Positions 13,927 through 29,959 of a stretch of 64,000 nucleotides of DNA are shown here, piece after piece; within the stretch, counting starts at the first letter, position 1, and every line of letters starts with the position of its first letter. The stretch is from a virus. The position numbers and the translations under genes were made by a program. A model generated the notes under the pieces. It searched no databases. It worked only from the letters and a program-made list of their open reading frames with translations, and was not told the origin of the DNA. The DNA lies in the IMG/VR virus record IMGVR_UViG_3300032235_000467; one strand, 5' to 3'.

Positions 13927-14258
13927 TGGGGGAGCAAGTAAACATAGTCAGAAAGATATATGGTAAAAATACATTTACAAATGTGGTAGATGTAGAGTTT
14001 AATCAATTAGTTCCAAAAGAAACTACTGATATAACACAAACTCCTGCGTCTGTAGACAGCTTCTTTAGTGATTACGATACTTTGTTTTACGATATTCCAC
14101 CTAGTGGATCTGAGAATTCTCATACCGAATTGGTAAGAAGAAGCGCAGAGTACATAGGTTTAAGTATAGATGATTTAAGAGAAGAGATATCAAATCTAAG
14201 AGATGAAAACGTGTCACTAAAGACACAGATAGTATCACTTACAAACCCGAATAAATAA
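13926..14258 (+). CDS. hypothetical protein with C-terminal coiled coil
   Basis: TAATG-coupled on both sides. Confidence 0.75.
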   Translation: MGEQVNIVRKIYGKNTFTNVVDVEFNQLVPKETTDITQTPASVDSFFSDYDTLFYDIPPSGSENSHTELVRRSAEYIGLSIDDLREEISNLRDENVSLKTQIVSLTNPNK

Positions 14259-17200
14259 TGGTAACGTCTGTAAATAAGATAAATGTTAATTTTGATAAGT
14301 ACGATACTATAGACTCATCTCTAATAGCTTCTAGAGACTATATTAGGCAGTTTGGTTTAAAAGAAGATTATGTAGAATATCATGTATATACTAAAAACGG
14401 TAATCTTCTTTACTCAAATTACAATTATACAGATTATAAAATACCAGGAACATTACAGGGATCTACTAATACATATACAGAAGAGTTAGAATTTTTTCCT
14501 GGTGATGTTGTTGAAAGTCTAGGGTTTACATATGGAACATACAATGTTCAATTTAATGTATATAGAAAGAAAGTTGTAGATATTAATCAAAAGGTATTTT
14601 TTATAAAAGAAATATCTAATGATAGAAAAGAACTTAGAATATCTTCTAATGATTTATCTAATTTAACCTTAGAAGAAGGTGTTATTAACTTTTTATATGA
14701 AATACAATCATCTTCATACTTTAAAGACTTTCTTTTAAATTTTGGAGATAATAAAATTATTAATGCTGTAAACATAGCATTAGATAAGAATACAGATCCT
14801 TATAGCATTTTAATAAAACTATACCAGCCTTTACCAAATGAGTTTGATCTAAAGTCTTCTTTTTGGTTTGTTGAAGAGCTATCTGAGGCTTCTGTTTTTG
14901 AAGTTAACTTGGCTCCACAACCTGTACAAGTATCAACTCCTTTTTTAAGATCTGCTAATTTTGATATAGAAGTTGATGAAAACTCTATAAAACCATCAGA
15001 CTATTTAAACATAAATGAACTTCTTTCAAACCAATCACTTGGTGCATATCAAGAGTTACTAAATGAGGTAAATAAAAAAGGCATACAAATAAATGTAGAC
15101 TATTCAGACTACAACAACTTTGTTCACTTTTCTTCCGCAAAAGAAAGATTGTTAAACTTTAGATATAAAGTAGAGTTAGTAGAATCCTATCAAGCAGATA
15201 TAGATGCCATAAAGAATACTACTAACTATCAAACTTCTTTTAACTCTAGTGCAAGCATAGTATCATTACAAGGTAAGATAGACAACATTGTAACTAAGTT
15301 TGATGGGTATGAAACTTATTTGTACTATACATCTGAATCATCTGCGTGGCCTAAATCAAATTCCAATAAACCATATATACTATATTCATCAACATCTAAT
15401 GAAGTAGAAAATTGGTTAGGTAGCGATGATTATGATTCACCAGTATATGGAGGGCAGATATACTCGGCGTCTATATATGATTTAGAAAATCAAGATAACT
15501 TATCTTATATTGTCCCAGAGTATATATCTATTGATCCTGTAAATGATGGATATACTCTATTCTTAAACATGGTAGGACAGCATTTTGATAATATCTGGAT
15601 CTACATGAATAGTATTACAGATCTCTATAAAAATAATAATAGCCTAAATAAAGGTATTTCAAAAGATCTTGTTTACTATGCTTTAAGGTCTCTTGGTGTA
15701 AAATTATATAATTCAAAAAGTAATGAGAACCTATTCCAGTATCTGATAGGAAGTTCAGTATCAGGAAGCTATTCACCTACAGGGTCATCTTTCGATACCC
15801 TAGTAACAGCCTCAGCGTATACTGTACCTGGACAAGATATACAAAAGGAAACTTTAAAAAGAATATACCACAATTTACCTCTTTTATTAAAGTCTAAGGG
15901 CACTGAAAGAGGTATAAAGGCCTTAATAACCTCGTTTGGCATACCTGATACTATATTGTCAGTTAATGAGTTTGGGGGCTCAGATAAGCTTAATAACACC
16001 GTAGAATACACATACGATAGGTTTTCATATGCATTAAACATGTCCGGATCGTATGTAAAGGCTTATTGGGGAGCTAAATATGACTATCCTACAGGGTCTG
16101 TCACTGAGTATGTGCCAAATTCAATAGAATTTAGGTTTAATCCAGACAAAGACTACTACTACTATACTTCTTCTTTGTTCGATGTCACATTAGACAGTAA
16201 TGGAAGGAGGACTATGTATGCGGATATATCCCCAGATTCTTCTAGCGGATACCCATATAGCATGGTAAGTTTTTACCTTAGTGGCAGTGCAGGGGTATCT
16301 AAAACATCTTTGTCTCTTCCTATATTCATGACCGCTTCTTCTGGAGAGTCTTTATGGTGGAATGTTATGGTCAAGAGAAGAAATGTGTACGATGTAACTA
16401 CAAATAATCAGGACCAATATTACGACCTCTATGTAAAGAATAAAATAGGATTAAGAATAGGACATGAAGCTTCTGCTAGCATATTTGCAACAGGAGCTGC
16501 ATCATCTTCTTACAACTATAGCTGGAACAGAGTATCACAGTCTCTTTATTTAGGAGGTACTGGATCTAAATTTGCAGGAAGTCTTCAAGAGCTTAGATAC
16601 TGGACAACTCCATTATCTGAAAGTGTTTTTGACTATCATACTTTAAATCCTGAGTCTATAAGAGGTAATTATAGCTCATCTGCATATGATGAATTATCTG
16701 CAAGGTTCCCATTAGGAAATGATCTATACATATACAATCATACTCTTACAGGATCTGTGTATTCAGTTCAACCAAATTATAAGGAAAGATCTGTAATAGC
16801 AGGAGCCACTATAAAATCAGCCAGTTTTGTAGGATTTCCTAATGAAATAAATTACTCATCAAATGATGAAGAGTATGTTACAGATTCCCCTAATATGGTA
16901 TACTCTAATCCAGTAAACCATAAAGTTAGAATAGTAGAAAATGTAATCACCGGTAGTGTATTATCACCTTTCATAAGGCTTGAGGATGAATCTCAAATAT
17001 ACACAACTAAAGACGTTCATTATATTGATGCATCTTTTTCACCTGCTAACGAATTAAATAAAGATATAATAGGTCAGTATGGAAACTCTATTGATATTGA
17101 TCAATATATAGGAGATCCTAGAGATGACTACAAGAAAGAGTATCCTAATCTTGTATCCTTTAATATAGAGTACTATGAAAAGTATTTTAGGGATTACAAT

Positions 17201-19699
17201 CTTGCAGACTATGTAAGACTTATAAAGTTCTTTGATAATTCTTTATTTAAGATGATAAAGGACTATGTCCCAGCAAGATCAAGCATTCAAACTGGATTAA
17301 CAATAAAGTCTACTATTCTTGAAAGACCTAAGTCAAAAAGAACAGAAGCTACTGTAATTGAAAACTATAACTCCCAAGAGGGTGAAATAGTAGCAGGTGA
17401 TATATCTGCTAATAGCATTTATTTAAGCGGTTACGGAAATGGTAGTGATTTTTATACAGGACAATTATCAGGATCTATAATTGACATCAATAATATATTT
17501 GATGAAAAAAATTACAATCCATATTTACAATTTACTTCTAGCATTGATTATAATTTTTTTGATAGAAGTGTGTATAACACAACTATAAACAACGTATCAG
17601 CTAGCCAAGTATCACTGTTATTTAAGAGGATAAATCCATATCAATTTGGTATGCTTGAGCCTGTTGAGATAATGGATGAAAAATACTCAGACCCAAGATA
17701 TACTAGACCAAGATATGATGGATCTAAAACAATTAGTTCAAAGTACAATTTCTACACCAAGGGGGATACTTCTTATGGTAAAACAGCTGCTGTAGATTTT
17801 AATGCAGAGAAGTTTGCCTTTGCAAACAGTATTAATAAAAAGAATCTTAATTTCTATGATAAAACTACTGTTAATATAAAGTATTTAATAGATGCTACAG
17901 GATCTGTTACTGAATTATCTAGGAGAAATTATCATTTATTTGAGGTTCAAAATATATACAAGAAAGGAGATCTTGTAAACGTGTCTTTGATGGATAAATT
18001 GAATCCAACAAATCAAGCATCTTTAGACGGAGATAAGGTTATATGGGAAGGAGGGTTCAGTTATTCTCCTATAATTTTTAGAGAAATTAATGAAAATCTT
18101 AATTTCACATATATAGAGCCTGCTGAAACAACTGAGAAAAAACTTGGGCTCAAGGCTATAAATATGAGTGGGTATCTGTTCCAGACATTAGGAGACGCGG
18201 ATGGACAATTACCAGGAGATTTCACAACAACTAACGCTATAAATCCAAAAGTTACTTTTAAAGTAAATGGAGTAGCAGATAATGCAAAATCTTTTTCACA
18301 GAGAAAAGTCCAAAGTACTAACTGGCCTTATTTAAAAATGCCGTTAACTGATTATGTAGCAAGTACAACTTTGTATAAAGATTATACAAATTCATTGAGA
18401 AACATAGGAAGTCATGATACAGCAGCTGATAATCCTAATTATTATTCTTTAGATTGGTTTATCCCAGGAAGTACTTCAGAGGCAGATGGTGGGTATATAA
18501 CAAATGATTTTACTGGAAAACTAACCGTAGTTCAATCAGGAACTGAGTATTATTCGTATGTAACAGCACCTAGGACATCCACTTATAGAGTAAACATAGA
18601 CTTACCAATAAAAGCCAAAGCAACAAATCCAGAGCCTACAGGATTCCTTGGTGTTGGGGTAAGGCAACAAGAAAATGGACCAGCTATTGTAAAAATTATA
18701 GGAATATTAGAAGTTCAAAAGGCAGGATCATCAACCTGGTCTTATTTAGATACCACCAACACAGCTGATCCAGTTCCTTATGGATATACTACTTTTACTG
18801 CAACTAATATACCAATAGCATCTGGAGGAAGACAAGCTACGGGTACAACCAGAGCGTTGGTTAACGAAAATAGAAGTTTTCTTTATTTTCCAGAAGACAC
18901 TGTAGGAGGTACGTATAACGGAAGAACAATAAGTCCATACTTTGAAGGAAGATGTCAATTGTTTGGAAAAGAAATCGCATTAAGTCAAAATGATAAATTG
19001 AGAGTTAGATTTTATTTTGCAGAGGTAACAACTTTCTTTAGAAGATGTGAAAACATATATTTTGAAATGAAAGTAGGTAATAAATCAGACGCCTTTTTTG
19101 AAGTATGGGATAAGGTTACAGCAAATACAACACAAGTAACAACTACCACTATAGTAGCAGATCCGTTAGACCCATTGATAGAACCATCATCAGATAATAA
19201 AACTATTATTTTTAATGATTCTGCCTCTTTACTATGGAACAAGGCATATTTTGAACCACCAGATTCAAGTAATCCAGCATCTATAAGCAATAATTATAGT
19301 GCCGTTGAATATCCTTTTTCTTTAAAAGTTTACGATGTAATAAGGTTTACACAGTTCAATGCCATAAAACCTGACTATTACTTAGTAATGGAAGTTATAG
19401 ATCCACAAATACAGACTATATCAACAGGAACAATAACATCCTATATAGTAAGTAGGCCTGCCGCTGTAGTTTTAGACAGGGAATACAACCCTAATCAAAT
19501 AAACGGGTCTAGCTTTGCAATTCTTAGAAAAGTTGAAGATGAGACTGTTATAATACTAGACTTTAAAAAGAAAGATGGGCTACCTTCAAATGCTTTTATG
19601 ATACCTTACAATGTTAAAGATGAGATTAAGAAAGACATCGGAAATATAGTAGCTCCATTGAAAGATACTATCCTTTCTAAAGTTCTGATTATAGGGTAA
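14258..19699 (+). CDS. large baseplate wedge protein (gp7-like, with LamG-like segment)
   Basis: 1813 aa; RIYHNLPLLLKSKGTERGIKALITSFGIP wedge motif; FAGSLQELRYWTTPLS. Confidence 0.7.
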   Translation: MVTSVNKINVNFDKYDTIDSSLIASRDYIRQFGLKEDYVEYHVYTKNGNLLYSNYNYTDYKIPGTLQGSTNTYTEELEFFPGDVVESLGFTYGTYNVQFNVYRKKVVDINQKVFFIKEISNDRKELRISSNDLSNLTLEEGVINFLYEIQSSSYFKDFLLNFGDNKIINAVNIALDKNTDPYSILIKLYQPLPNEFDLKSSFWFVEELSEASVFEVNLAPQPVQVSTPFLRSANFDIEVDENSIKPSDYLNINELLSNQSLGAYQELLNEVNKKGIQINVDYSDYNNFVHFSSAKERLLNFRYKVELVESYQADIDAIKNTTNYQTSFNSSASIVSLQGKIDNIVTKFDGYETYLYYTSESSAWPKSNSNKPYILYSSTSNEVENWLGSDDYDSPVYGGQIYSASIYDLENQDNLSYIVPEYISIDPVNDGYTLFLNMVGQHFDNIWIYMNSITDLYKNNNSLNKGISKDLVYYALRSLGVKLYNSKSNENLFQYLIGSSVSGSYSPTGSSFDTLVTASAYTVPGQDIQKETLKRIYHNLPLLLKSKGTERGIKALITSFGIPDTILSVNEFGGSDKLNNTVEYTYDRFSYALNMSGSYVKAYWGAKYDYPTGSVTEYVPNSIEFRFNPDKDYYYYTSSLFDVTLDSNGRRTMYADISPDSSSGYPYSMVSFYLSGSAGVSKTSLSLPIFMTASSGESLWWNVMVKRRNVYDVTTNNQDQYYDLYVKNKIGLRIGHEASASIFATGAASSSYNYSWNRVSQSLYLGGTGSKFAGSLQELRYWTTPLSESVFDYHTLNPESIRGNYSSSAYDELSARFPLGNDLYIYNHTLTGSVYSVQPNYKERSVIAGATIKSASFVGFPNEINYSSNDEEYVTDSPNMVYSNPVNHKVRIVENVITGSVLSPFIRLEDESQIYTTKDVHYIDASFSPANELNKDIIGQYGNSIDIDQYIGDPRDDYKKEYPNLVSFNIEYYEKYFRDYNLADYVRLIKFFDNSLFKMIKDYVPARSSIQTGLTIKSTILERPKSKRTEATVIENYNSQEGEIVAGDISANSIYLSGYGNGSDFYTGQLSGSIIDINNIFDEKNYNPYLQFTSSIDYNFFDRSVYNTTINNVSASQVSLLFKRINPYQFGMLEPVEIMDEKYSDPRYTRPRYDGSKTISSKYNFYTKGDTSYGKTAAVDFNAEKFAFANSINKKNLNFYDKTTVNIKYLIDATGSVTELSRRNYHLFEVQNIYKKGDLVNVSLMDKLNPTNQASLDGDKVIWEGGFSYSPIIFREINENLNFTYIEPAETTEKKLGLKAINMSGYLFQTLGDADGQLPGDFTTTNAINPKVTFKVNGVADNAKSFSQRKVQSTNWPYLKMPLTDYVASTTLYKDYTNSLRNIGSHDTAADNPNYYSLDWFIPGSTSEADGGYITNDFTGKLTVVQSGTEYYSYVTAPRTSTYRVNIDLPIKAKATNPEPTGFLGVGVRQQENGPAIVKIIGILEVQKAGSSTWSYLDTTNTADPVPYGYTTFTATNIPIASGGRQATGTTRALVNENRSFLYFPEDTVGGTYNGRTISPYFEGRCQLFGKEIALSQNDKLRVRFYFAEVTTFFRRCENIYFEMKVGNKSDAFFEVWDKVTANTTQVTTTTIVADPLDPLIEPSSDNKTIIFNDSASLLWNKAYFEPPDSSNPASISNNYSAVEYPFSLKVYDVIRFTQFNAIKPDYYLVMEVIDPQIQTISTGTITSYIVSRPAAVVLDREYNPNQINGSSFAILRKVEDETVIILDFKKKDGLPSNAFMIPYNVKDEIKKDIGNIVAPLKDTILSKVLIIG

Positions 19700-19743: not shown

Positions 19744-20403
19744 ATGGGATATTTAAACAATACCGTAGTAACTGTCGATGCTATTTTGACTAAAAAAGGC
19801 CGGGAACTCCTAGCCAGGAACGACGGGTCTTTCAGAATTACACAATTTGCAATGGCTGACGATGAGATAGATTATACTCTGTACAATACAACTCACCCTT
19901 CAGGATCAGCTTTTTATGGCGAAGCCATAGAAAATATGCCTCTTTTAGAAGCATTCCCAGACGAGAATCAAATCATGAAATATAAACTGGTAACCCTTCC
20001 TAGAGGAACAAGTAAGCTGCCAGTTATCAATGTAGGGTACGCTAGCATAGTCCTTAAACAAGCTGCTTCCATAGTAATAACCCCACAGACTTTGAATTAT
20101 CTAGGTGCTACTTCTACATTTGAGCCTAGCGGATATGTAGTAACCGTTGGAGATGCTAGACTTTTGTCTACCTTTAGTGGGATAGGAATTGATACCACTA
20201 ATTTAGGTATATCTGATTTGAACAGCACTACAGGAACTCAGATAAGCAAAACCGCAATAGGAACGTCTTTTACTTTGGTAGGTACTACAATAGATACTCT
20301 ATTCGGAAGCACATTAACCAGCCTAAGCACAACTATAACTGTAGTTGGTAGGGATTCTGGTGCTAGAATCACCATTCCATTAACTGTAAAAAAGAATAAA
20401 TAA
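19744..20403 (+). CDS. baseplate/tail-fibre attachment protein
   Basis: DAILTKKGRELLA...FRITQFAMADDEIDY resembles fibre-proximal N-terminal domains. Confidence 0.65.
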   Translation: MGYLNNTVVTVDAILTKKGRELLARNDGSFRITQFAMADDEIDYTLYNTTHPSGSAFYGEAIENMPLLEAFPDENQIMKYKLVTLPRGTSKLPVINVGYASIVLKQAASIVITPQTLNYLGATSTFEPSGYVVTVGDARLLSTFSGIGIDTTNLGISDLNSTTGTQISKTAIGTSFTLVGTTIDTLFGSTLTSLSTTITVVGRDSGARITIPLTVKKNK

Positions 20404-21431
20404 TGTCCTTCATAACATTTCAAGATGATGATAGTGTAATAAGTTCGGAGGCCATAACGGCACCTCTATGGACTTCTAACGTCTATAACATAACCGCTTC
20501 ATTCACATCCAGTGTTCAACAGGGAGACAATACAGGAAAGTATTACTTAAATGTGTACAATCTACCAGTTGGAAGTGACGGATCAGAGACGCAATATTCA
20601 GTGGCCTACGGACATATATCAGGTAGCGGATCAGCTGTTTTTAATAGTCTGGTAGATGAAAAAAGTCCAACAAGAGACATATACGGACAGTACAGAAATT
20701 TAGTATACGGAGATGAAGGTAGCGTATTTAACTTTGGAGGAAGCAATGGAGTGTCCAGGGATATATTTGCAATCAATATAAACAGGTCTAGATATAAAGA
20801 AAAGATCAATACCGGAACTTGGAACTTGACTTTAAAGAATGGCAGTAGCTTCTTATATTTAACTGATAATAGCAAAGATACTTCTGTAAATAGCTTTATT
20901 GGAGGAAATAGGGTATACTACATCGTAAGCGGATCTAATGGTAATAGTTACAATACGTCTTCTGTACAGACTGCTAGCGGAAGCTATGGGTATTTCTTTC
21001 CAGATATGGGTATATATGTATTGAATCCAAGAGCGTTGTCACTTTCATATGCTAATGGTGGTATAGGTATGACTGTAGATGAGACAAGCGCATTGTCATA
21101 TACAGCCACTTATAATATAAATGCAGACAGATTATTTAGAGTAATAAACTCTGGATCGTCTTTTCAAGCAAAAAGTGAGGAGACTATATCATCTAGGTAT
21201 TTCTTTGTAAATGCAAAAAGTTCCCAGTTAAACTATACAACAAACCCGTCTATTATAGATGAAAACGGAAATGTACTGTACTCTGTATTGATAGATAATC
21301 CGCAGGTGTTTCCAACAACTATAGGATTGTATAACGATGCTAATGAGCTTTTGGCTGTTGCTAAATTAAGTAAACCTTTGCCAAAAGACTTCACTAAGCA
21401 GATAACATGTAGAGTCAAATTAGAATTTTAA
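20403..21431 (+). CDS. baseplate/tail-associated protein
   Basis: C-terminal TTIGLYNDANELLAVAKLSKPLPKDF motif. Confidence 0.65.
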   Translation: MSFITFQDDDSVISSEAITAPLWTSNVYNITASFTSSVQQGDNTGKYYLNVYNLPVGSDGSETQYSVAYGHISGSGSAVFNSLVDEKSPTRDIYGQYRNLVYGDEGSVFNFGGSNGVSRDIFAININRSRYKEKINTGTWNLTLKNGSSFLYLTDNSKDTSVNSFIGGNRVYYIVSGSNGNSYNTSSVQTASGSYGYFFPDMGIYVLNPRALSLSYANGGIGMTVDETSALSYTATYNINADRLFRVINSGSSFQAKSEETISSRYFFVNAKSSQLNYTTNPSIIDENGNVLYSVLIDNPQVFPTTIGLYNDANELLAVAKLSKPLPKDFTKQITCRVKLEF

Positions 21432-21448
21432 ATTCGAGATGACTACAT

Positions 21449-23509
21449 ATGTCGGCATACAAACGTTTATATAAGTCAGATATAGTTAATACTCCATATA
21501 TATCAAATAAAAATTGGAGTATTAGCGTATGTGATTTAGAGTCTTACGGAATCAGAGTATACAATGGTGTAAAAACCAGTAGTATATTCGATTATAATAA
21601 TGACATTAAGACCAATAATGAATACGATAGATTGGTTTTTGATTCAGTAAACCATTTGTATTATCAATCATTTTCTGGATCATATTTAGATGATTCTTCA
21701 AATTTATCATCTCTAAACTACGCTAGCGCATCTATATACAGACCTTCTGGATCTTATTATGATTATACACCTCAAGGGTATATGATAAAAGAGTTCCCTA
21801 CAGGATCAGATGCTACCATAAAAGTATTATCAATATCTAAAGACGTTTATAGTACATCTGTAAAGAAAATGTCTTTTAACATTTCTACATCCTTTATGAA
21901 TTTACAGGATGATGGAAAAGGTAATGTGTACGACACCTCAGGATCCGATATTTTAGTAGGCAATATATTCTATGAACATGGCCTAATAATAGTAACTCAC
22001 CCAGACTATCAAGAGATATTTCCAATACCCCCATATGCAAAAGATGATTATGTATCATTTTCATCTTCAACAACTCCTAAGCTGATAAGTCCTTTAGCAA
22101 ATGATAATACTAGAGGGTGGGTTTCTTTAACGGGATCGATAGAGTTATCAGGGTCAGATGCTGCCTATTTTACTAATAATGGAAACGGCACCTTAACGTT
22201 AAGCGCCAGTGTCGTTGGAACATATACAACACACTACAGATTTTCAACCAGTAGTTCTGATAGTAGTTGTATTCTTAAGTCAAATTATGCTAAAATTGAA
22301 GCTAAAGTCGGTAAACCTCTATGTAAGTTTATTGTATATGCTATATATTTGACCCCTACCCCTACTCCAACACCTACTGCAACTCCAACAGTTACTCCTA
22401 CTCCAACACCTACTGTAACACCTACTGCAACAGCAACACCAACTCCAACTGGAGCACCTACTAATACACCTACTCCAACTCCTACCCCAACTAACACAGC
22501 TACTCCTACAGCTACAGCTACGCCAGTACCTCCAACAGCAACACCTACTCCTACGCCAACTGGAGCACCTACTAATACACCAACTCCTACTCCAACGCCT
22601 ACTGCAACAGCAACAGCAACACCTACTCCTGAACCACCAACAGCAACGCCTACTCCAACTCCTACCCCGACAGGAGCTCCTACTAATACGCCTACCCCAA
22701 CTCCTACTCCTGAACCGCCAACGGCAACACCTACTCCTACTGCAACAGCTACGCCTACTCCTACTCCTGAACCACCAACAGCAACACCTACTCCTACTGC
22801 AACAGCTACGCCTACTCCTACTCCTACAACTGAACCGCCTACAGCTACACCAACTCCTACAGCTACACCAACGCCTACTCCTGAACCACCGACAGCAACA
22901 CCTACTCCTACTGCAACGCCTACTGCAACAGCTACTCCTACTAATACTCCTGTTCCACCAACAGCAACGCCTACTCCTACTGCAACGGCCACTCCAACGC
23001 CTACAGCTGAACCGCCTACAGCTACTCCTACACCTACACCAACGAACACTTCTGTACCTACTAATACTCCTACACCTACACCAACAAACACTCCAACACC
23101 TACTCCTACAGTAGTGTCCTTCTCTTATAGCTTTGACTACGCCTCTACTTGTGCGGTAGCTTGTGAGTACATGGAGCCTGTATCTGTATACAGTGCTGAC
23201 AGTCCTCTTGTCGTAGGATCTAGACTATTCTTTGATAGTGGATTAACTAATGAAGTGTTTTATAATTATTATTATAGTAATGGAACAACTTGCTATAGAT
23301 ATGAAGAAATTGATGGTTTTGGAGAAATAATATCAATATCTTCGTGTAATACTCCAACACCTACTCCAACACCTACAACTACTCCTGAGCCTACAGCAAC
23401 TCCTAGTACGTGCTATCAGTGTTCTCAAGATCTTAGCATATACACCACATTAATTGAGTGTGAGACTAGTTGTGATGGAGGAGTTTGTGCAGAAGCGGTT
23501 TGCCCTTAA
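21449..23509 (+). CDS. baseplate-type N-domain + Ig-like domain + mucin-like Pro/Thr stalk + Cys-rich tip
   Basis: LQDDGKGN...[14 protein letters not shown]; PYAKDD...PLAND (Ig/cadherin-like); ~250-aa PT tract; Cys-rich C-terminus. Confidence 0.75.
22352..23110 (+). repeat. Pro-Thr coding repeat ([20 protein letters not shown]), ~253 codons
   Basis: Degenerate CCN-ACN 6-nt periodicity. Confidence 0.95.
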
Positions 23510-23545
23510 TGTTTAAATTGTTATTTTTTTATGTAAAAAATATTC

Positions 23546-23553
23546 TATATTTG
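23546..23553 (+). promoter_or_regulatory. Bacteroidota-type -7 element TATATTTG upstream of the glyco-enzyme operon
   Basis: TAnnTTTG 13 nt before ATG 23567; -33 element is poor. Confidence 0.45.
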
Positions 23554-23566
23554 TAAAAAATAGTAT

Positions 23567-24832
23567 ATGAGTTTCGAAAATGATAAGATATTTGTACAGA
23601 TAGCTAGCTACAGAGATCCTCAGTTAATACTTACGATAGACGACATGATAACCAGGGCTAAATACCCTGAAAGATTGACATTCGGTATATGCTGGCAATA
23701 CGATGAAGATGAAGATACTGAAATATTTGACAAGAAGCCAAATTTTCGTATAAAAAAATATCATTATAGCGAAAGTGAAGGTTTAGGATGGGCAAGAAAT
23801 GTTACTAACAGTCTATATGAAGGAGAAAAGTACACATTACAAATAGATAGCCACCACAGATTTGTCGATGGGTGGGATGAGATATTAATGGAAGATTACC
23901 TCCAAGCTTTAGAAATATCGGAAAAACCGATTATTACTACCTATTGTACACCATTTGATCCGGAAGGATGTAGATGTAAATATGAAAAACTACCATCCTT
24001 GATGTCTCAGTATGAGTTCTCGGCAGATAAATTACTTATGAGTATGCCTTGGTATATTCAGGATTATCAGCAAAGAACTAAGGTAATAAGAGCTAGAACC
24101 ATAAGCGGACATTTTTATTTTGTAGATGGGAGTTTTATAGACGAAGTAAGGTATGACCCAGACATATATTTTGGTGGATACACTGAAGAGACGACTCTTA
24201 GTGTAAGAGCCTTTACAAAAGGGTATGATTTCTTTAGCCCATATAGAATGATTATGTGGCATGAATATACCCGTAATTATAGGCGCAAACACTGGGAAGA
24301 TCATGGTGCGGAAAGTGCTACAAAGAAGACTTCTGGAGAAAGGGATGTATACGCTAGGAACAAGACCAGGCAGTTATTTGGGCAAGAGGATCATGGTATT
24401 GATATGGGAATATATGGACTAGGAGATGTAAGATCATTACACGATTACGAGGTATATGGAGGATTTGATTTTAAGAATTGTAGAATACAAGACTATACTC
24501 TTAAGGTTAAAGAACCCCCAAACCCTATAGATTGGGAAGAACAGTTTAAGACATATAAACAGGATGTTACAGTTTATTGGGATGTAGAATTCTTTAAGAA
24601 GTTTGGATTTGAAAATCCTAAATTTTTAACACTAGGAATACAAACAAAATCCGGAATAGAAATATATCGCAAAGATTTTAAAATAGACACAGACCCAGAA
24701 TATGTTAATTTAATAAAAAACATTCACACAGTTAAAGTAGATTCTCAGGACAAGCCCTCTAAAATAGTAATGTACCTATTTGATGAAATTAAACAGTGGA
24801 GTGACAGATACGAAAAAGATATTAACATATGA
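23567..24832 (+). CDS. GT60-like polypeptide/hydroxyproline alpha-GlcNAc transferase
   Basis: IFVQIASYRDP, GLGWAR, YTLQIDSHHRF..GWD, EE..LSVRAFTKGYD, WHEY.R; no TM segment. Confidence 0.8.
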   Translation: MSFENDKIFVQIASYRDPQLILTIDDMITRAKYPERLTFGICWQYDEDEDTEIFDKKPNFRIKKYHYSESEGLGWARNVTNSLYEGEKYTLQIDSHHRFVDGWDEILMEDYLQALEISEKPIITTYCTPFDPEGCRCKYEKLPSLMSQYEFSADKLLMSMPWYIQDYQQRTKVIRARTISGHFYFVDGSFIDEVRYDPDIYFGGYTEETTLSVRAFTKGYDFFSPYRMIMWHEYTRNYRRKHWEDHGAESATKKTSGERDVYARNKTRQLFGQEDHGIDMGIYGLGDVRSLHDYEVYGGFDFKNCRIQDYTLKVKEPPNPIDWEEQFKTYKQDVTVYWDVEFFKKFGFENPKFLTLGIQTKSGIEIYRKDFKIDTDPEYVNLIKNIHTVKVDSQDKPSKIVMYLFDEIKQWSDRYEKDINI

Positions 24833-26004
24833 GAATAGCTTTCATAGTTATAGGGAATAGTCGCAGAAGCAACTATCTAAATGGAGATACTATAAGGTAT
24901 GGGGGCGGAGGAGGATCAGGAACAGACGGAAGCTCAATAATAGTAGCAGAACAGCTATCTTTGTTAGGACATGAGGTAGTTATAGCATCTGAAAAGCTAG
25001 AGCCTCAATTAGAAGTAGCATATTCTCAAAAAGGAATTAATTTTGATTCTGGGAAAATAGTTAGAGGAGTCCAATACTGCAATATGGACTTTGAAGGTGT
25101 TGAAAATAAAGAATTTGATATTTTAGTAAGTAGTCTGTGGTTTCATGGATATGATAAAATGCCTATAGTAGTAACAAAGGCATTGATATATTGGTGCCAT
25201 ATGCAATGGATTTATGGTATAGAAGAGGTTTTAAACTACGTAAACAGCAATAACTTAGCCCTAGGGTTTGTTAATATATCAGAATGGGAAAGAAACATGA
25301 ATCAAGGAGTGCTTAATTCGGTTAAAACTAGATTCCCATCAGTTAAAAATACTTTAATACCAAATCCAGTAATGGATGATATAATAGAGGAAGTACTATC
25401 ATTAAATCTGCAAAAAAAGAAACATAAGGTAGTGTTTCATGCAGCTTGGGCTAGAGGCGGAAATGTAGCAATAGAAGCTGTAAGAAAGTTAGGATGGGAA
25501 GATGTTGAATTTCATGCTTTTGATTATTTGATGGCAACTCATGCTCATAATGATTCATTTTTTAATATGCACAATGGCGTAGATAAGAAAACACTATTTA
25601 CACATATAGCAGAGAGTGAATATTTTATATACCCTCTATATACACCATACCAGGATGTACACAAGGATACTTTTAGCTGTGTAGTAGCTGAATCTATAGC
25701 ATTAGGGGCAATACCTGTAACATACCCATTAGGAGCCTTACCTGAGAATTTTCAAGATTATTGTGCGTGGCTAGAGCCGCCACCAGGAGCAGATCTAGAA
25801 AAAATGCAAAAAGAATCACTATCCAAAGATTTGGAAGGTATATTCAAATATAATGATAATATAGTAAATAAAATAAACTATTTAGAGTCAAATCCTAAAA
25901 TAAAAGAGGATTTAATAAAAACAGGAAAACAATACATATTAGATAAGTTTAACGCTAATAGGATAGGGAATATGTGGCAAAGTTTTATAAATGAAATAGT
26001 ATGA
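24829..26004 (+). CDS. GT-B fold glycosyltransferase (GT4-like)
   Basis: GGSGTD...LSLLGHEV; DTFSCVVAESIALGAIPVT..LGALPE (E/D-x7-E motif). Confidence 0.8.
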   Translation: MRIAFIVIGNSRRSNYLNGDTIRYGGGGGSGTDGSSIIVAEQLSLLGHEVVIASEKLEPQLEVAYSQKGINFDSGKIVRGVQYCNMDFEGVENKEFDILVSSLWFHGYDKMPIVVTKALIYWCHMQWIYGIEEVLNYVNSNNLALGFVNISEWERNMNQGVLNSVKTRFPSVKNTLIPNPVMDDIIEEVLSLNLQKKKHKVVFHAAWARGGNVAIEAVRKLGWEDVEFHAFDYLMATHAHNDSFFNMHNGVDKKTLFTHIAESEYFIYPLYTPYQDVHKDTFSCVVAESIALGAIPVTYPLGALPENFQDYCAWLEPPPGADLEKMQKESLSKDLEGIFKYNDNIVNKINYLESNPKIKEDLIKTGKQYILDKFNANRIGNMWQSFINEIV

Positions 26005-26687
26005 GTGAAGACTTTACAAATTATTATAAATTATTACATAATGATATAACAATTCCTATAGATCATATAAAATATCTTAACACTATTAACTATTATCCAA
26101 AAGTAGTTTTTGATATAGGAGCCGCAGTATTACACTGGACTAAAGAAGCTAAAAAAATATGGCCTAATGCAAAATACTATGCATTTGAAGGAATGACGCA
26201 AGTTAAAAAATTTTACGAGTATATGCAACAAGATCATACTATAGGATTATTATCCGATATAGTAGATAAAGAAGTTGTATACAACTGTAATCCTATTAAT
26301 TTAGGAGGAAATTCTTATTACAAAGAAAATGAAGAATATTCCTCAGCAGCAAAAAAAATATACACAAAAGAATTTGAAGAAGTTAGAACTACAACTACTT
26401 TAGATTACATAGTTAAAACCTATAAATACCCACAACCTGATTTTATTAAAATAGATGTACAGGGAGCTGAGATAGATGTATTAATTGGAGCTGAAGATAC
26501 TTTAAAAGGAGTCAATCATTTGATTATAGAATTACAGCATGTACAGTATAATATAGGAGCTAAGTTAGTAGAAGAATCTCTACCTTTTATAGAATCTTTG
26601 GGATTTCAATTAGTCCCCACAGGAAACGATAACAAGTATTTTTGTGGTAACGGGCCAGATGCTGATTATCATTTTATAAAAAAATAG
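26001..26687 (+). CDS. FkbM-family SAM-dependent methyltransferase
   Basis: VFDIGA, YAFE, TTLD, PDFIKIDVQGAEIDVLIGA. Confidence 0.88.
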   Translation: MSEDFTNYYKLLHNDITIPIDHIKYLNTINYYPKVVFDIGAAVLHWTKEAKKIWPNAKYYAFEGMTQVKKFYEYMQQDHTIGLLSDIVDKEVVYNCNPINLGGNSYYKENEEYSSAAKKIYTKEFEEVRTTTTLDYIVKTYKYPQPDFIKIDVQGAEIDVLIGAEDTLKGVNHLIIELQHVQYNIGAKLVEESLPFIESLGFQLVPTGNDNKYFCGNGPDADYHFIKK

Positions 26688-26690
26688 GTT

Positions 26691-27782
26691 ATGTACGATT
26701 ATACAATAGTAGGATCAGGATTGTTTGGATCTGTATGTGCTAGAGAGCTTACAGATAAGGGGTATAAATGTCTTGTAATAGACAAGCGTAATCACATAGG
26801 AGGCAATTGCTATACAGAAAATATAGATGATATAAATGTTCATAAATACGGGCCACACATATTCCACACATCTGATAAAAAAGTTTGGGAATATGTAAAT
26901 AGGTTTGCTACTTTTAATAACTTCAGCTATAGGCCAAAAGTAAACTACAAAGGAAAAATATACTCGTTCCCTATAAACCTAATGACTCTATACCAGGTTT
27001 ATGGAGTAACAACTCCAGATGAGGCTACTAGAAAACTAGAAGATGTTAAAATAGATATACCAAGTCCAAAAAATCTAGAAGAGTGGATTCTATCTCAAGT
27101 AGGCCCAGAATTGTACAACATATTTGTGAAGGGGTACACCAAAAAACAATGGAAGAAAGATCCAAAAGATCTACCATCAAGCATAATAAGAAGGTTACCA
27201 ATAAGAATGTCTTTTGAAGATAATTATTATGAAGACGTATACTCAGGAATACCAATAGGAGGATACACACAGATATTTGAAAACCTACTATCAGGTATAG
27301 AAGTACGCCTAAATACCGATTATTTTTACAATAGAGATTATTTTAATGATATTGCTAAAAAAGTAATATATACTGGTCCTATAGATAGATTTTATTCATA
27401 TATGCATGGAAAATTGGAGTACAGAAGCCTTAGATTTGAAACTGTAAAGTTAAATATGCCTGATTATCAAGGTGTTGCTGGTATGAATTATACTGATGAA
27501 GAAGTTCCTTTTACAAGGATAGTAGAACATAAGCACTTTGAATTTGGAAAACAAAAGAGTACGATAGTAACATTTGAGTATCCAGAATCTACTGGAGAGC
27601 CATATTACCCTATAAACGATGAAATAAATAACTCTGTGTATAAAAAATACAGAGAAATGATGGATAAAGAGACTAAATACCTATTTGGTGGTAGATTGAC
27701 GGACTATAAATATTATGATATGCACCAAGTTATAGCATCTGCCTTATCTAAAAGCCAGAAAGAAAATATTTATAATATATGA
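26691..27782 (+). CDS. glf: UDP-galactopyranose mutase
   Basis: [57 protein letters not shown]. Confidence 0.95.
27767..27774 (+). promoter_or_regulatory. putative late promoter TATTTATA
   Basis: Within the 3' end of glf, 4 nt before ATG 27779. Confidence 0.55.
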
Positions 27783-28438
27783 ACACGTATCAAGTCTTTA
27801 TTTCTGGGGACGCCGCAGGTCCATTTGATGTATACTATGATAGTATATCAGTTGGTACACAACTAGATACTGGCGTTTCTAGGAGTAATCTCTTGGCAGG
27901 TTATACTGTAACTGGTATACCTGATTCCGCATCTAGCATAATAGTTTTTAATACAGATTCAGGATGTAATAACTTTGTTACTTATTTTATAAAACCACCT
28001 ACCCCAACCCCTACACCTACACCTACACCAACACCAACACCAACTGTAGTAGTAGATTGTTCAATGTCTGGAGGTTCTATAATAGAGGCAACCCCTACTC
28101 CTACACCTACCCTAACTGTAACGCCGACACCAACAGCTACAGCAACGTCAACACCTACGCCAACAGCAACGTCAACACCTACGCCAACTCCTACATTAAC
28201 ATCATATGATCACTATATAGCAGATGAATACTACTGTCCTGGATGTACAATAAAAACATCTGGAGTAGTTGTAGCATTCCCAGCTGGTCAAACAGTTGTT
28301 GTAGGAAGATGGTATCCTGATGCAAGTGATACATCACACACATTCTTGATAGTAAGTACTACATCATCTGGTCCAGGGTACATACTAACGAATGAATTTG
28401 GATCGTTTACAGCTTGTAACATAGCTTGTTCAATATAA
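27779..28438 (+). CDS. Pro/Thr-repeat (mucin-like) protein, paralog A
   Basis: N-domain AGPF...[12 protein letters not shown]...C; two PT tracts; Cys-containing C-domain; no signal peptide. Confidence 0.8.
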
Positions 28439-28455
28439 TGAAAATATAATAGTAT

Positions 28456-29211
28456 ATGCCTACTAAATCAATAACAGTAACAATAGCAAGTATAGGATCT
28501 TCCGCAGGACCTTTTAACATATCTGATGATGTTTTGGGAGTTGTTGCTATGAATGTAAGTAGGTCTCAGCTATTATCAGGATATAGTGTAAACGTGGACA
28601 CTACTGCAACTGTAGTAACTGTCGCATCTGTTGGAGACTGTACAACATCATTAAACATACTTTTATCAACCCCTACACCAACTCCTACTCCTACTGTAAC
28701 TCCAACTCCTACCGTAACTCCAACTCCTACTCAAAACCCTATATACTTTGATAGTAACTTTACAAACACTGCAAATGTTTGTGGAGGTAATCCTACTAAT
28801 ACTGGAGGCAAGATATGGTCGAGACTGGTAGCTCCTTCAGGAAGTACAGTAGAATTTACGGTTACAGCTGAACAGTTCATAACTAGTATAAATGCTGTAA
28901 GCGCATCTATATCAGGAATATTATATAATACAACACTACCTTCTTCAAACCCAACAAAAGGAACAGTAGTTACGTCATCATACGCAAGTATCCTAAGTGC
29001 AGATGTTCCTAACTATATATCAGATACACAAGTAGTCACAGTAACAATACCATCACAAGGATATCAAGATTACTTGTTAATATATAATACTTATAATATA
29101 GCTTCAAACTTTACAAATGGAGAAGTTAGGGCCACAATAACAAAAGTAAATGGGGTAGCAGTAAGCAATGCAGGAAGCTTGGCAACATCTTATAACTGTT
29201 CCAATCCGTAA
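28456..29211 (+). CDS. Pro/Thr-repeat (mucin-like) protein, paralog B
   Basis: N-domain AGPF...VSRSQLLSGYSV...C; PT tract; beta-rich C-domain. Confidence 0.8.
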   Translation: MPTKSITVTIASIGSSAGPFNISDDVLGVVAMNVSRSQLLSGYSVNVDTTATVVTVASVGDCTTSLNILLSTPTPTPTPTVTPTPTVTPTPTQNPIYFDSNFTNTANVCGGNPTNTGGKIWSRLVAPSGSTVEFTVTAEQFITSINAVSASISGILYNTTLPSSNPTKGTVVTSSYASILSADVPNYISDTQVVTVTIPSQGYQDYLLIYNTYNIASNFTNGEVRATITKVNGVAVSNAGSLATSYNCSNP

Positions 29212-29223
29212 TAATATAAAAAT

Positions 29224-29523
29224 ATGGTAGAATATCAAGATTTTAAGCTTAACTTTACTAATAATCACATGATTATAGAACGTAATATAAAATGTACGAT
29301 CAAAGATCATGAGATGGGATATAGCTATAATCCATCATTACTGACATCAGGCAGCCAAGAAAATATGCTAGGGTTTGCTACAGGATCTGATTTTATGCCA
29401 TATGTTACCACTATAGGGTTTTACAATGATACTAATGATTTATTGATGGTAGCTAAATTTGCTCAACCAGTACCAATATCAGCAAATACAGATACAAATT
29501 TCTTAATTAGAATGGATATATAA
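29224..29523 (+). CDS. stand-alone C-terminal domain of baseplate protein (paralog of the 20403..21431 C-terminus)
   Basis: YSYNPS...PYVTTIGFYNDTNDLLMVAKFAQPVP..FLIRMDI vs NYTTNPS...VFPTTIGLYNDANELLAVAKLSKPLP..CRVKLEF. Confidence 0.75.
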   Translation: MVEYQDFKLNFTNNHMIIERNIKCTIKDHEMGYSYNPSLLTSGSQENMLGFATGSDFMPYVTTIGFYNDTNDLLMVAKFAQPVPISANTDTNFLIRMDI

Positions 29524-29524
29524 T

Positions 29525-29959
29525 ATGTGGTTTTACAAAGGACAGGTTATAACAGACATTTCCCAGTTTCCAGAAAATGCATATGGTTTTATATACAAGA
29601 TAAGAAAAATAGACGGAGGCAAATTCTATATAGGGAGAAAGAATTTAGTATCAGAAAGAAACAAACCTTTAACAAAAAAGGAGATATCAGAACATACCGG
29701 TAAGGGTAAGAAACCTACTAAAAAGAAAGTAGTATCTGAGAGCGATTGGAAGACTTATTACGGGTCTAATGCTGCGCTTAAGGCCGATATAAAGGAGCTA
29801 GGTAAAGAATCCTTTGTTAGGGAGATAATGCATATATGCACCCACAAGAAACAAATGACATATCAAGAGTTAAGACATCAGATTATAAATGGGTGTCTAG
29901 AGTCTACAAACTGCTATGTTGATAACATTCTTGGTAAGTTTTGGAGAAAAGATATTTAG
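29525..29959 (+). CDS. GIY-YIG-type endonuclease-like protein
   Basis: YGFIYKI...KFYIGRK...ESDWKTYYGS...FVREI. Confidence 0.7.
   Translation: MWFYKGQVITDISQFPENAYGFIYKIRKIDGGKFYIGRKNLVSERNKPLTKKEISEHTGKGKKPTKKKVVSESDWKTYYGSNAALKADIKELGKESFVREIMHICTHKKQMTYQELRHQIINGCLESTNCYVDNILGKFWRKDI

Follow-up and report, generated by a model that had tools for sequence, protein, structure and literature searches.

The 64,000-nt viral stretch analysed here (IMG/VR record IMGVR_UViG_3300032235_000467; hereafter the window, to which all coordinates refer) probably carries a tail-module gene that was split at the linker between its two domains, with the N-half serving as an anchor, the C-half retained as a small separate gene, and a bay of other genes lying between them; this is the best overall explanation that we can offer. 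Three open reading frames (ORFs) are central to it, namely A (20403-21431, 342 aa), B (21449-23509, 686 aa) and C (29224-29523, 99 aa), all of them on the + strand like the whole feature region 19744-29959. One ancestral gene of the type of gp105 of Flavobacterium phage immuto would have been cut within the flexible linker that joins its N-part to its C-domain. The N-half would have stayed at the ancestral position and become the anchor of a projecting protein with an Ig-like domain, a ~250-residue Pro/Thr (PT) stalk and Cys-rich distal domains, and the C-half would survive as an 11-kDa protein, encoded just ahead of the SegE-like GIY-YIG gene that adjoins the unsplit gene in relatives. What lies between the halves would have become a hypervariable bay, which here holds four sugar-related enzymes and two PT-linker proteins.

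Immuto is the nearest cultured relative, with Microcystis phage Mel-JY01 and Rhodothermus phage RM378 more distant. In immuto gp105 (YP_010114578, 357 aa, annotated as hypothetical), B 1-75 (37%), B 154-183 (55%) and C 1-99 find their counterparts in that order, and C matches gp105 residues 241-357 at 37% identity (E = 2e-23). Scanning IMG/VR with C gave ~38 loci in which a single ORF of 281-324 aa carries both parts, residues 1-196 corresponding to B 1-184 and residues ~235-323 to C 10-98. An earlier sequence-only reading of the window had taken B and C for the two pieces of one ancestral paralogue of A. Contiguous homologues spanning both pieces do exist, in immuto gp105 and in the ~38 IMG/VR proteins, and B and C are colinear with successive parts of these proteins and of A.

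A family profile was built from 27 single-chain proteins and searched against all six frames of the window. Only three ORFs match it: B, C and the paralogue A. Residues 1-213 of B cover profile positions 1-226 (E = 1.6e-23) and C covers positions 223-322 (E = 2.9e-32), with an overlap of only ~4 positions, so that together the two pieces cover the whole family profile once, with next to no redundancy. Within the window, the ancestral gp105-type gene is thus represented by its N-part in 21449..22009 (B residues 1-~187, the B N-half) and by its C-domain in C itself, which contains the family motif TTVGLYN...LLAVxKL...P (profile ~228-322). In a tree of C-domains, C falls within the gp105-type clade and the A-type domains form a separate clade (support 100/99). 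Members of the gp105-type family are ~320 aa long and consist of an N-part, a Gly/Tyr/Ser-rich linker and the C-domain; we counted 3562 representatives at 50% identity (E <= 1e-3). In the window the two parts are not on one polypeptide, as B stops at 23509 and C starts at 29224, with 5.7 kb and six genes between them. Being two separate ORFs, they represent a split derivative and not a canonical gp105-type member.

A is the intact A-type paralogue (20403..21431), an orthologue of immuto gp106 with a two-part layout and a C-domain at ~255-342; it shares 43% identity with immuto gp106 and 35% with its Mel-JY01 counterpart. The three ORFs are present as first described, with lengths of 342, 686 and 99 aa, and the proposed likeness of C to the C-part of A was borne out, both pairwise (C 15-84 against A 260-327, 34% identity, E = 8e-10) and profile against profile (probability 99%, E = 1.6e-18). 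A also matches the unsplit family in profile comparison (probability 99%, E = 2.7e-18). The suggested likeness between the N-parts of A and B fared less evenly: the full-length profile alignment is colinear and pairs the motifs quoted for it, but it is weak otherwise, with a BLASTP E of 2 and N-part-only profile comparisons at E = 3-4e-4, 35-39% probability and 29-49 columns. In Mel-JY01, this C-domain forms the end of each of five consecutive genes (L002:10907-19853; 357, 352, 954, 718 and 591 aa); the last of them is gp105-type and the others are A-type, two of the latter with long N-terminal extensions.

B remains alignable to the family up to the ...[13 protein letters not shown] strand, which directly precedes the ancestral linker, and the break maps to the 25-35-residue low-complexity, Gly/Tyr/Ser-rich linker of the unsplit proteins. 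C begins ~7 residues ahead of the first conserved C-domain strand, and its start can only be the ATG at 29224, because the frame is open only from 29215. The flanking genes are identical around the split and the unsplit forms. In the seven unsplit loci that were inspected, a 218-aa gene is followed by the A-like gene, the unsplit gene, the GIY-YIG gene and the primase, with nothing between the unsplit gene and the GIY-YIG gene; the order in the window is 219-aa gene, A, B, four enzymes, two PT-linker proteins, C, GIY-YIG gene and primase. The left edge of this common gene order is the 219-aa gene (19744..20403, + strand), a homologue of immuto gp107 with 70% identity to L001:11335-11982, whose homologues directly precede the A-like gene in relatives of both kinds, split and unsplit. 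The right edge is the SegE-like GIY-YIG gene (29525..29959, + strand; PHROG 447, 314 and 7363). Since the unsplit gene adjoins the GIY-YIG gene in relatives, 22010-29223 (~7.2 kb) constitutes a net insertion at the interdomain linker. The contiguous homologues, the colinear pieces and the shared flanking genes together support the sequence-only reading: the finding is real and its interpretation was essentially right.

The same arrangement could have arisen without any fission, from two truncated gp105-type duplicates bracketing fibre genes, the upstream copy having lost its C-domain and the downstream copy its N-part. Some features of the relatives fit such a history: fibre genes of immuto lie between the unsplit gene and the GIY-YIG gene, the last Mel-JY01 fibre before the GIY-YIG gene bears a gp105-type C-domain, and the family duplicates readily, as the five Mel-JY01 paralogues illustrate. 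It also agrees with the borders of the cargo, where a search for direct or inverted repeats and mobile-element marks found only PT-coding repeats and hence no target-site repeats. However, the seven unsplit loci have a single copy with nothing before the GIY-YIG gene, the six-frame profile search found no remnant of a lost N-part or C-part in the window, and two independent truncations would have to leave halves that tile the profile with so little overlap. We regard this alternative as quite unlikely. A scan of the window for promoters and terminators gave results at or below chance.

How a single gene might be opened at its linker is suggested by its relatives. Among the 150 best family representatives (150 of 3562), 42 carry in-frame inserts, mostly of ~70-270 aa; roughly a third of these inserts lie at or beside the linker and the rest at other sites. 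Mel-JY01 p5 (WWT39517, 591 aa) is a single chain with an insert of ~280 aa in the same region. The simplest history would be an in-frame domain insertion at the permissive linker, which later picked up a stop codon, additional genes and a second start codon. Pfam searches of ten insert-bearing relatives returned nothing. The family's in-frame inserts recur at profile positions ~30-40, ~135, ~160-230 and ~265, as in a display scaffold. In L010:386-1600, from a close relative and on the same contig as L008, the B N-half has an additional in-frame insert of ~190 aa just before the GNIFYEHG strand, at the same spot as the insert of Mel-JY01 p5. A 213-aa N-part ORF (P0114, L063:904-1545) has a stop within the linker ('...ITNGTENTSN*'), 12 nt from the end of a 1.6-kb contig, and is possibly an independent split or possibly a truncation. 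Another candidate stand-alone half, P0138, was dismissed as a gene-calling error, being a fragment of an unsplit ORF on a 1.1-kb contig.

The split is of long standing and is kept by selection. A stand-alone C of exactly 99 aa occurs in 13 IMG/VR loci at 53-89% identity, always directly before the GIY-YIG gene, and a collection of 5.8 billion proteins holds 104 clusters of stand-alone C proteins, mostly of 95-104 aa. Eleven contigs span both regions (the window, five IMG/VR contigs, L021, L022, L064, L065 and L067), and each of them has both halves. Among the closer relatives, the ratio of nonsynonymous to synonymous substitution rates (dN/dS) of C is 0.03-0.12, with dS at least 0.46 and mostly near saturation; the B N-half has a dN/dS of 0.08-0.13 among close relatives. 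The earlier view that both halves stayed intact accordingly holds, with strong purifying selection (dN/dS 0.03-0.13) on each. In a tree of the neighbouring A gene, six split loci form one clade (support 100/99). None of the cultured phages in INPHARED has the split form.

These figures also bear on the notion that ORF 29224 is a decaying, non-functional remnant of a deleted gene and that only B matters. C is indeed short, belongs to no Pfam or PHROG family and lacks a Shine-Dalgarno-like sequence upstream. A decaying ORF, however, would hardly keep a length of exactly 99 aa across 13 loci with identities as low as 53%, recur in 104 stand-alone clusters, show such low dN/dS with synonymous sites at or near saturation in most pairs, and always be tightly packed in its operon; decay is extremely improbable. 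We also considered whether stop-codon read-through could join 28456 to C, and rejected it: although they share a frame, two TAA codons lie between them, and the gene upstream of C is not the same in all relatives.

The DNA between the halves behaves as a hypervariable bay for adsorption-related genes. In the window, B is followed on the + strand by a GlcNAc-type glycosyltransferase (23567-24832; PF11397, 8e-60), a weakly GT1-like protein (24829-26004; PF00534, 0.009, below cutoff), an FkbM-type methyltransferase (26001-26687; PF05050, 4e-16), a UDP-galactopyranose mutase (26691-27782; PF03275, 3e-74) and two PT-linker proteins without a Pfam family (27779-28438 and 28456-29211). Two of the four enzymes are thus glycosyltransferases, one of them being only a weak match. 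Close relatives carry a mosaic of this cassette with extra genes: homologues of the second glycosyltransferase (24829) share 43% identity in L010-L012 and 64-65% in other loci, and no homologue of the FkbM-type methyltransferase was detected in the close relatives' cassettes. L021 (6146-10004) has a poly-Thr rather than a Pro/Thr stalk in B and a different three-gene set that includes a GT2 glycosyltransferase (PF00535, E = 4.7e-7). The bay of L067 (5030-9988) and L068 holds a third version of the sugar cassette, with PF11397, GT25, GT11 and Glf. In L022, L064 and L065 only large fibre-like proteins lie between the halves, and no glycosyltransferase was detected there. Because the contents of the slot range from differing glycosyltransferase sets to none at all, the split came before this glyco-cassette. 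The sequence-only reading had placed the glyco-cassette inside a split gene; the cassette does lie between the halves, but the split is older than this particular cassette. In L021 the last cargo gene overlaps the start of C in an ATGA.

The variability extends into B itself. After its N-part, B switches, as had been noted from its letters, to a probable Ig-like junction domain (residues ~188-301, 22010..22351; Big_9, E = 0.016, below the Pfam cutoff) and then to a Pro/Thr-rich stalk (residues 302-554, 22352..23110), a composition run of dense short repeats. The distal end (23111..23509) comprises a Cys-containing domain, a second short PT run (634-654) and a Cys-rich terminal segment; it is only partly common to some relatives (L017/L007) and has no Pfam family. 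The junction start 'FPxPPxAxxDY' recurs in all split-type B proteins examined, the junction being seen in L021, L022, L064, L065 and L067. The N-half and the junction Ig-like segment are common to these proteins, while the distal part varies from 307 to 1203 aa with different end domains, and stalk length and sequence differ even among close relatives.

Some weaker resemblances were recorded among the PT-bearing proteins. The N-domains of the two PT-linker proteins (27779 and 28456) are weakly alike (34% over 70 aa, E = 0.036), and the C-domain of 27779 weakly resembles the domain after the PT stalk of B (23111-23347; E = 0.005), which hints at shared PT-stalk modules. The long B proteins L022:4609-8220 and L064:6061-9192, whose bays are without glycosyltransferases, have weak SprB-repeat matches (E = 0.003, below the Pfam cutoff); as SprB is a gliding adhesin of Flavobacterium, this is a faint hint about the host or target.

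The GIY-YIG gene lies directly after C in split loci, or after the intact gene in unsplit relatives, and is followed by the primase; in L067/L068 one opposite-strand epimerase/dehydratase gene stands between the two. PF19835 (SegE_GIY-YIG) was found on the orthologues L064:10324-10779, L065:10305-10751 and L067:10275-10721. The SegE-like gene may mark the boundary of genetic exchange beside the variable bay. The label 'NAD synthetase' carried by PHROG 447 for this GIY-YIG family looks like a misnomer.

Whether the two halves could still form one unit was addressed on the unsplit L038 protein (L038:9305-10270), modelled with AlphaFold from an 87-sequence alignment; an earlier model from a 27-homologue alignment had a predicted local distance difference test score (pLDDT) of 46 and was discarded. 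The L038 model has a pLDDT of 87.1 and a predicted template modelling score (pTM) of 0.77, the latter for the whole unsplit chain despite the disordered linker, whose residues 196-220 are the sole low-confidence stretch. Structural alignments to this model span residues ~18-240 or 1-322, implying that strands 12-26 and 231-249 each run through both lobes, i.e. that the lobes are discontinuous. Minimal family members (P0070, P0104 and P0120) keep profile positions 1-90, 1-130 or 1-163 together with the C-part and have lost the middle. Mutual information (MI) over 156 sequences places 8 of the 50 top N-by-C pairs between positions 10-28 and 229-251, against 1.16 expected, with a covarying ladder (22-236, 23-237) between the N strand and the C strand among them. 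The model, the minimal variants and the covariation suggest that the N-part and the C-part make up one interlocked unit rather than beads on a string. From the same evidence we lean towards trans-complementation of the B N-half with C, in which the two would re-associate and rebuild the ancestral fold. The first long beta-strand of C would then pack against the N-part sandwich, beside the N-terminal strand of B.

Alternatively, the gene could be split as described and yet encode halves that no longer touch, each an independent module with its own site on the tail, the covalent link having always been dispensable. Such independence would agree with a linker that is long, of low complexity and predicted to be disordered, and with a C-domain that is portable, being common to the A-type paralogues and the long Mel-JY01 proteins. 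It sits poorly with the whole-chain pTM and the discontinuous lobes, with minimal variants that always keep an N-terminal segment together with the C-part, with the covariation enriched between the N-terminal strand and the first C-strand, and with the co-occurrence of the halves in 11/11 contigs. On balance we judge independent modules unlikely. Reunion by a split intein or trans-splicing was rejected: a Pfam scan of B and C (E <= 0.1) found no intein (Hint) halves, B ends in a Cys-rich domain after a long stalk, and C starts ~7 residues before its C-domain strand.

The rebuilt unit would sit at the periphery of the tail or baseplate, with the stalk projecting where relatives carry inserted domains, and the enzymes of the cassette may glycosylate the PT stalks. 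A baseplate location is suggested by gene order. The region 19744-29959 lies in one same-strand structural block of a T4-like phage, within the baseplate module, and is preceded there by genes of hub-like (6498), gp25-like (9917; PF04965) and gp6-like wedge (10315) type. Upstream genes of the block further include a GH19 lysin (12220) and a gene for a giant protein of 1813 aa (14258). The first ~1050 residues of this giant (14258-19699) are common with immuto gp109 (39% and 37%, in two blocks) and a Mel-JY01 protein (28%); its C-terminal ~760 residues are without counterpart in immuto or Mel-JY01.

Several points weigh against the history of fission, anchoring and reassembly proposed here, beside the possibility of two truncated duplicates discussed above. 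Gene order is the sole basis for the baseplate location. Foldseek against the Protein Data Bank (PDB) returned nothing at E <= 1e-3, so that the family has no convincing solved fold relative, and the best VIA score (Z = 4.4, to a phi812 baseplate chain) is within background; in these searches no known baseplate protein, T4-type periphery proteins (gp9, gp10, gp11, gp12) included, gave a match in sequence or fold. The covariation box was chosen after seeing the model, and MI computed on 156 related sequences carries noise and a contribution from common ancestry. A long and flexible linker would in principle let the two parts bind separate sites. Finally, the trees leave L022 without a firm placement, which allows for either one or two fission events.

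The family itself is largely absent from annotation resources. Pfam and PHROGs have no family for A, C or the B N-part, the sole PHROG match of B being phrog_15511 (unknown function) within its Pro/Thr run. Sequence-profile searches of the PDB found no relative of the family, BFVD returned only uncharacterised viral proteins and the ESM Atlas only unnamed viral clusters, and our literature searches found no description of the gp105-type family or of this split.

Split genes are not without precedent in T4-like phages, where 'genes in pieces' include nrdA of Aeromonas phage Aeh1, T4 39/60 and gene 43 of phages 25 and 44RR (PMC2988022), and where such cases have been studied, the halves come together again as a working protein (PMC2988022). 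The window resembles these systems in that a gene contiguous in relatives is encoded as two retained ORFs around inserted DNA, in a T4-like genome with seg/mob-type nucleases. It differs in that theirs are enzymes of replication and nucleotide metabolism and the window's is a structural tail-module gene; theirs are split by one homing-endonuclease gene or a short untranslated spacer, whereas here the halves are separated by 3-10 kb of variable cargo for adsorption and glycosylation. In addition, the N-half in the window gained new domains, its re-assembly with C is putative, and the GIY-YIG gene follows the second half, in the same place as in unsplit relatives.

Closer comparisons come from the family itself. 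Immuto gp105 has the homologous, colinear N-part and C-domain among the same neighbours (gp107-like, gp106-like and GIY-YIG), but it is a single polypeptide without internal cargo, and its fibre and spike genes come after the intact gene. In Mel-JY01 WWT39517, foreign sequence close to the same linker separates gp105-type N- and C-parts (13-171 and 451-590), and the gene has the same position before the GIY-YIG and primase genes; the insert is nevertheless in frame, leaving one chain with no nested genes.

Some receptor-binding proteins combine a conserved N-terminal anchor with an exchangeable distal part, and the 'evolved Dit' proteins of siphophages carry binding modules as loop insertions. 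B is comparable to the former in that its N-part is conserved under purifying selection and its distal part is variable, and the single-chain gp105-type relatives are comparable to the latter in displaying inserted domains in loops. Unlike in either, the anchor of B is half a fold whose other half is encoded kilobases away, and neither has a sequence or fold relationship to the family. In a bolder version of our proposal, the halves are an obligate trans-complementing pair and, with the SegE-like gene, form the fixed arms of an exchange bay through which related phages swap modules for host recognition and virion glycosylation, so that whatever lands there is tethered to the tail via the B N-half; this is conceivable but doubtful.

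If the proposed history is true, the window adds a clear case of a working split gene in a virion structural gene, such genes in T4-like phages being known for replication enzymes. It is a split conserved across more than 100 protein clusters, whose gap has grown into a multi-gene variable region, and it illustrates how a site in a tail protein that is prone to loop insertions may develop into a genomic location for host-range and glycosylation cargo. Attention is also drawn to a very large viral family, unannotated and without a solved relative, as a candidate display scaffold. For annotators, it means that the 99-aa ORF should be treated as the partner of the N-part of the long PT protein. 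The pair would, moreover, offer a natural two-piece system for fragment complementation in phage assembly.

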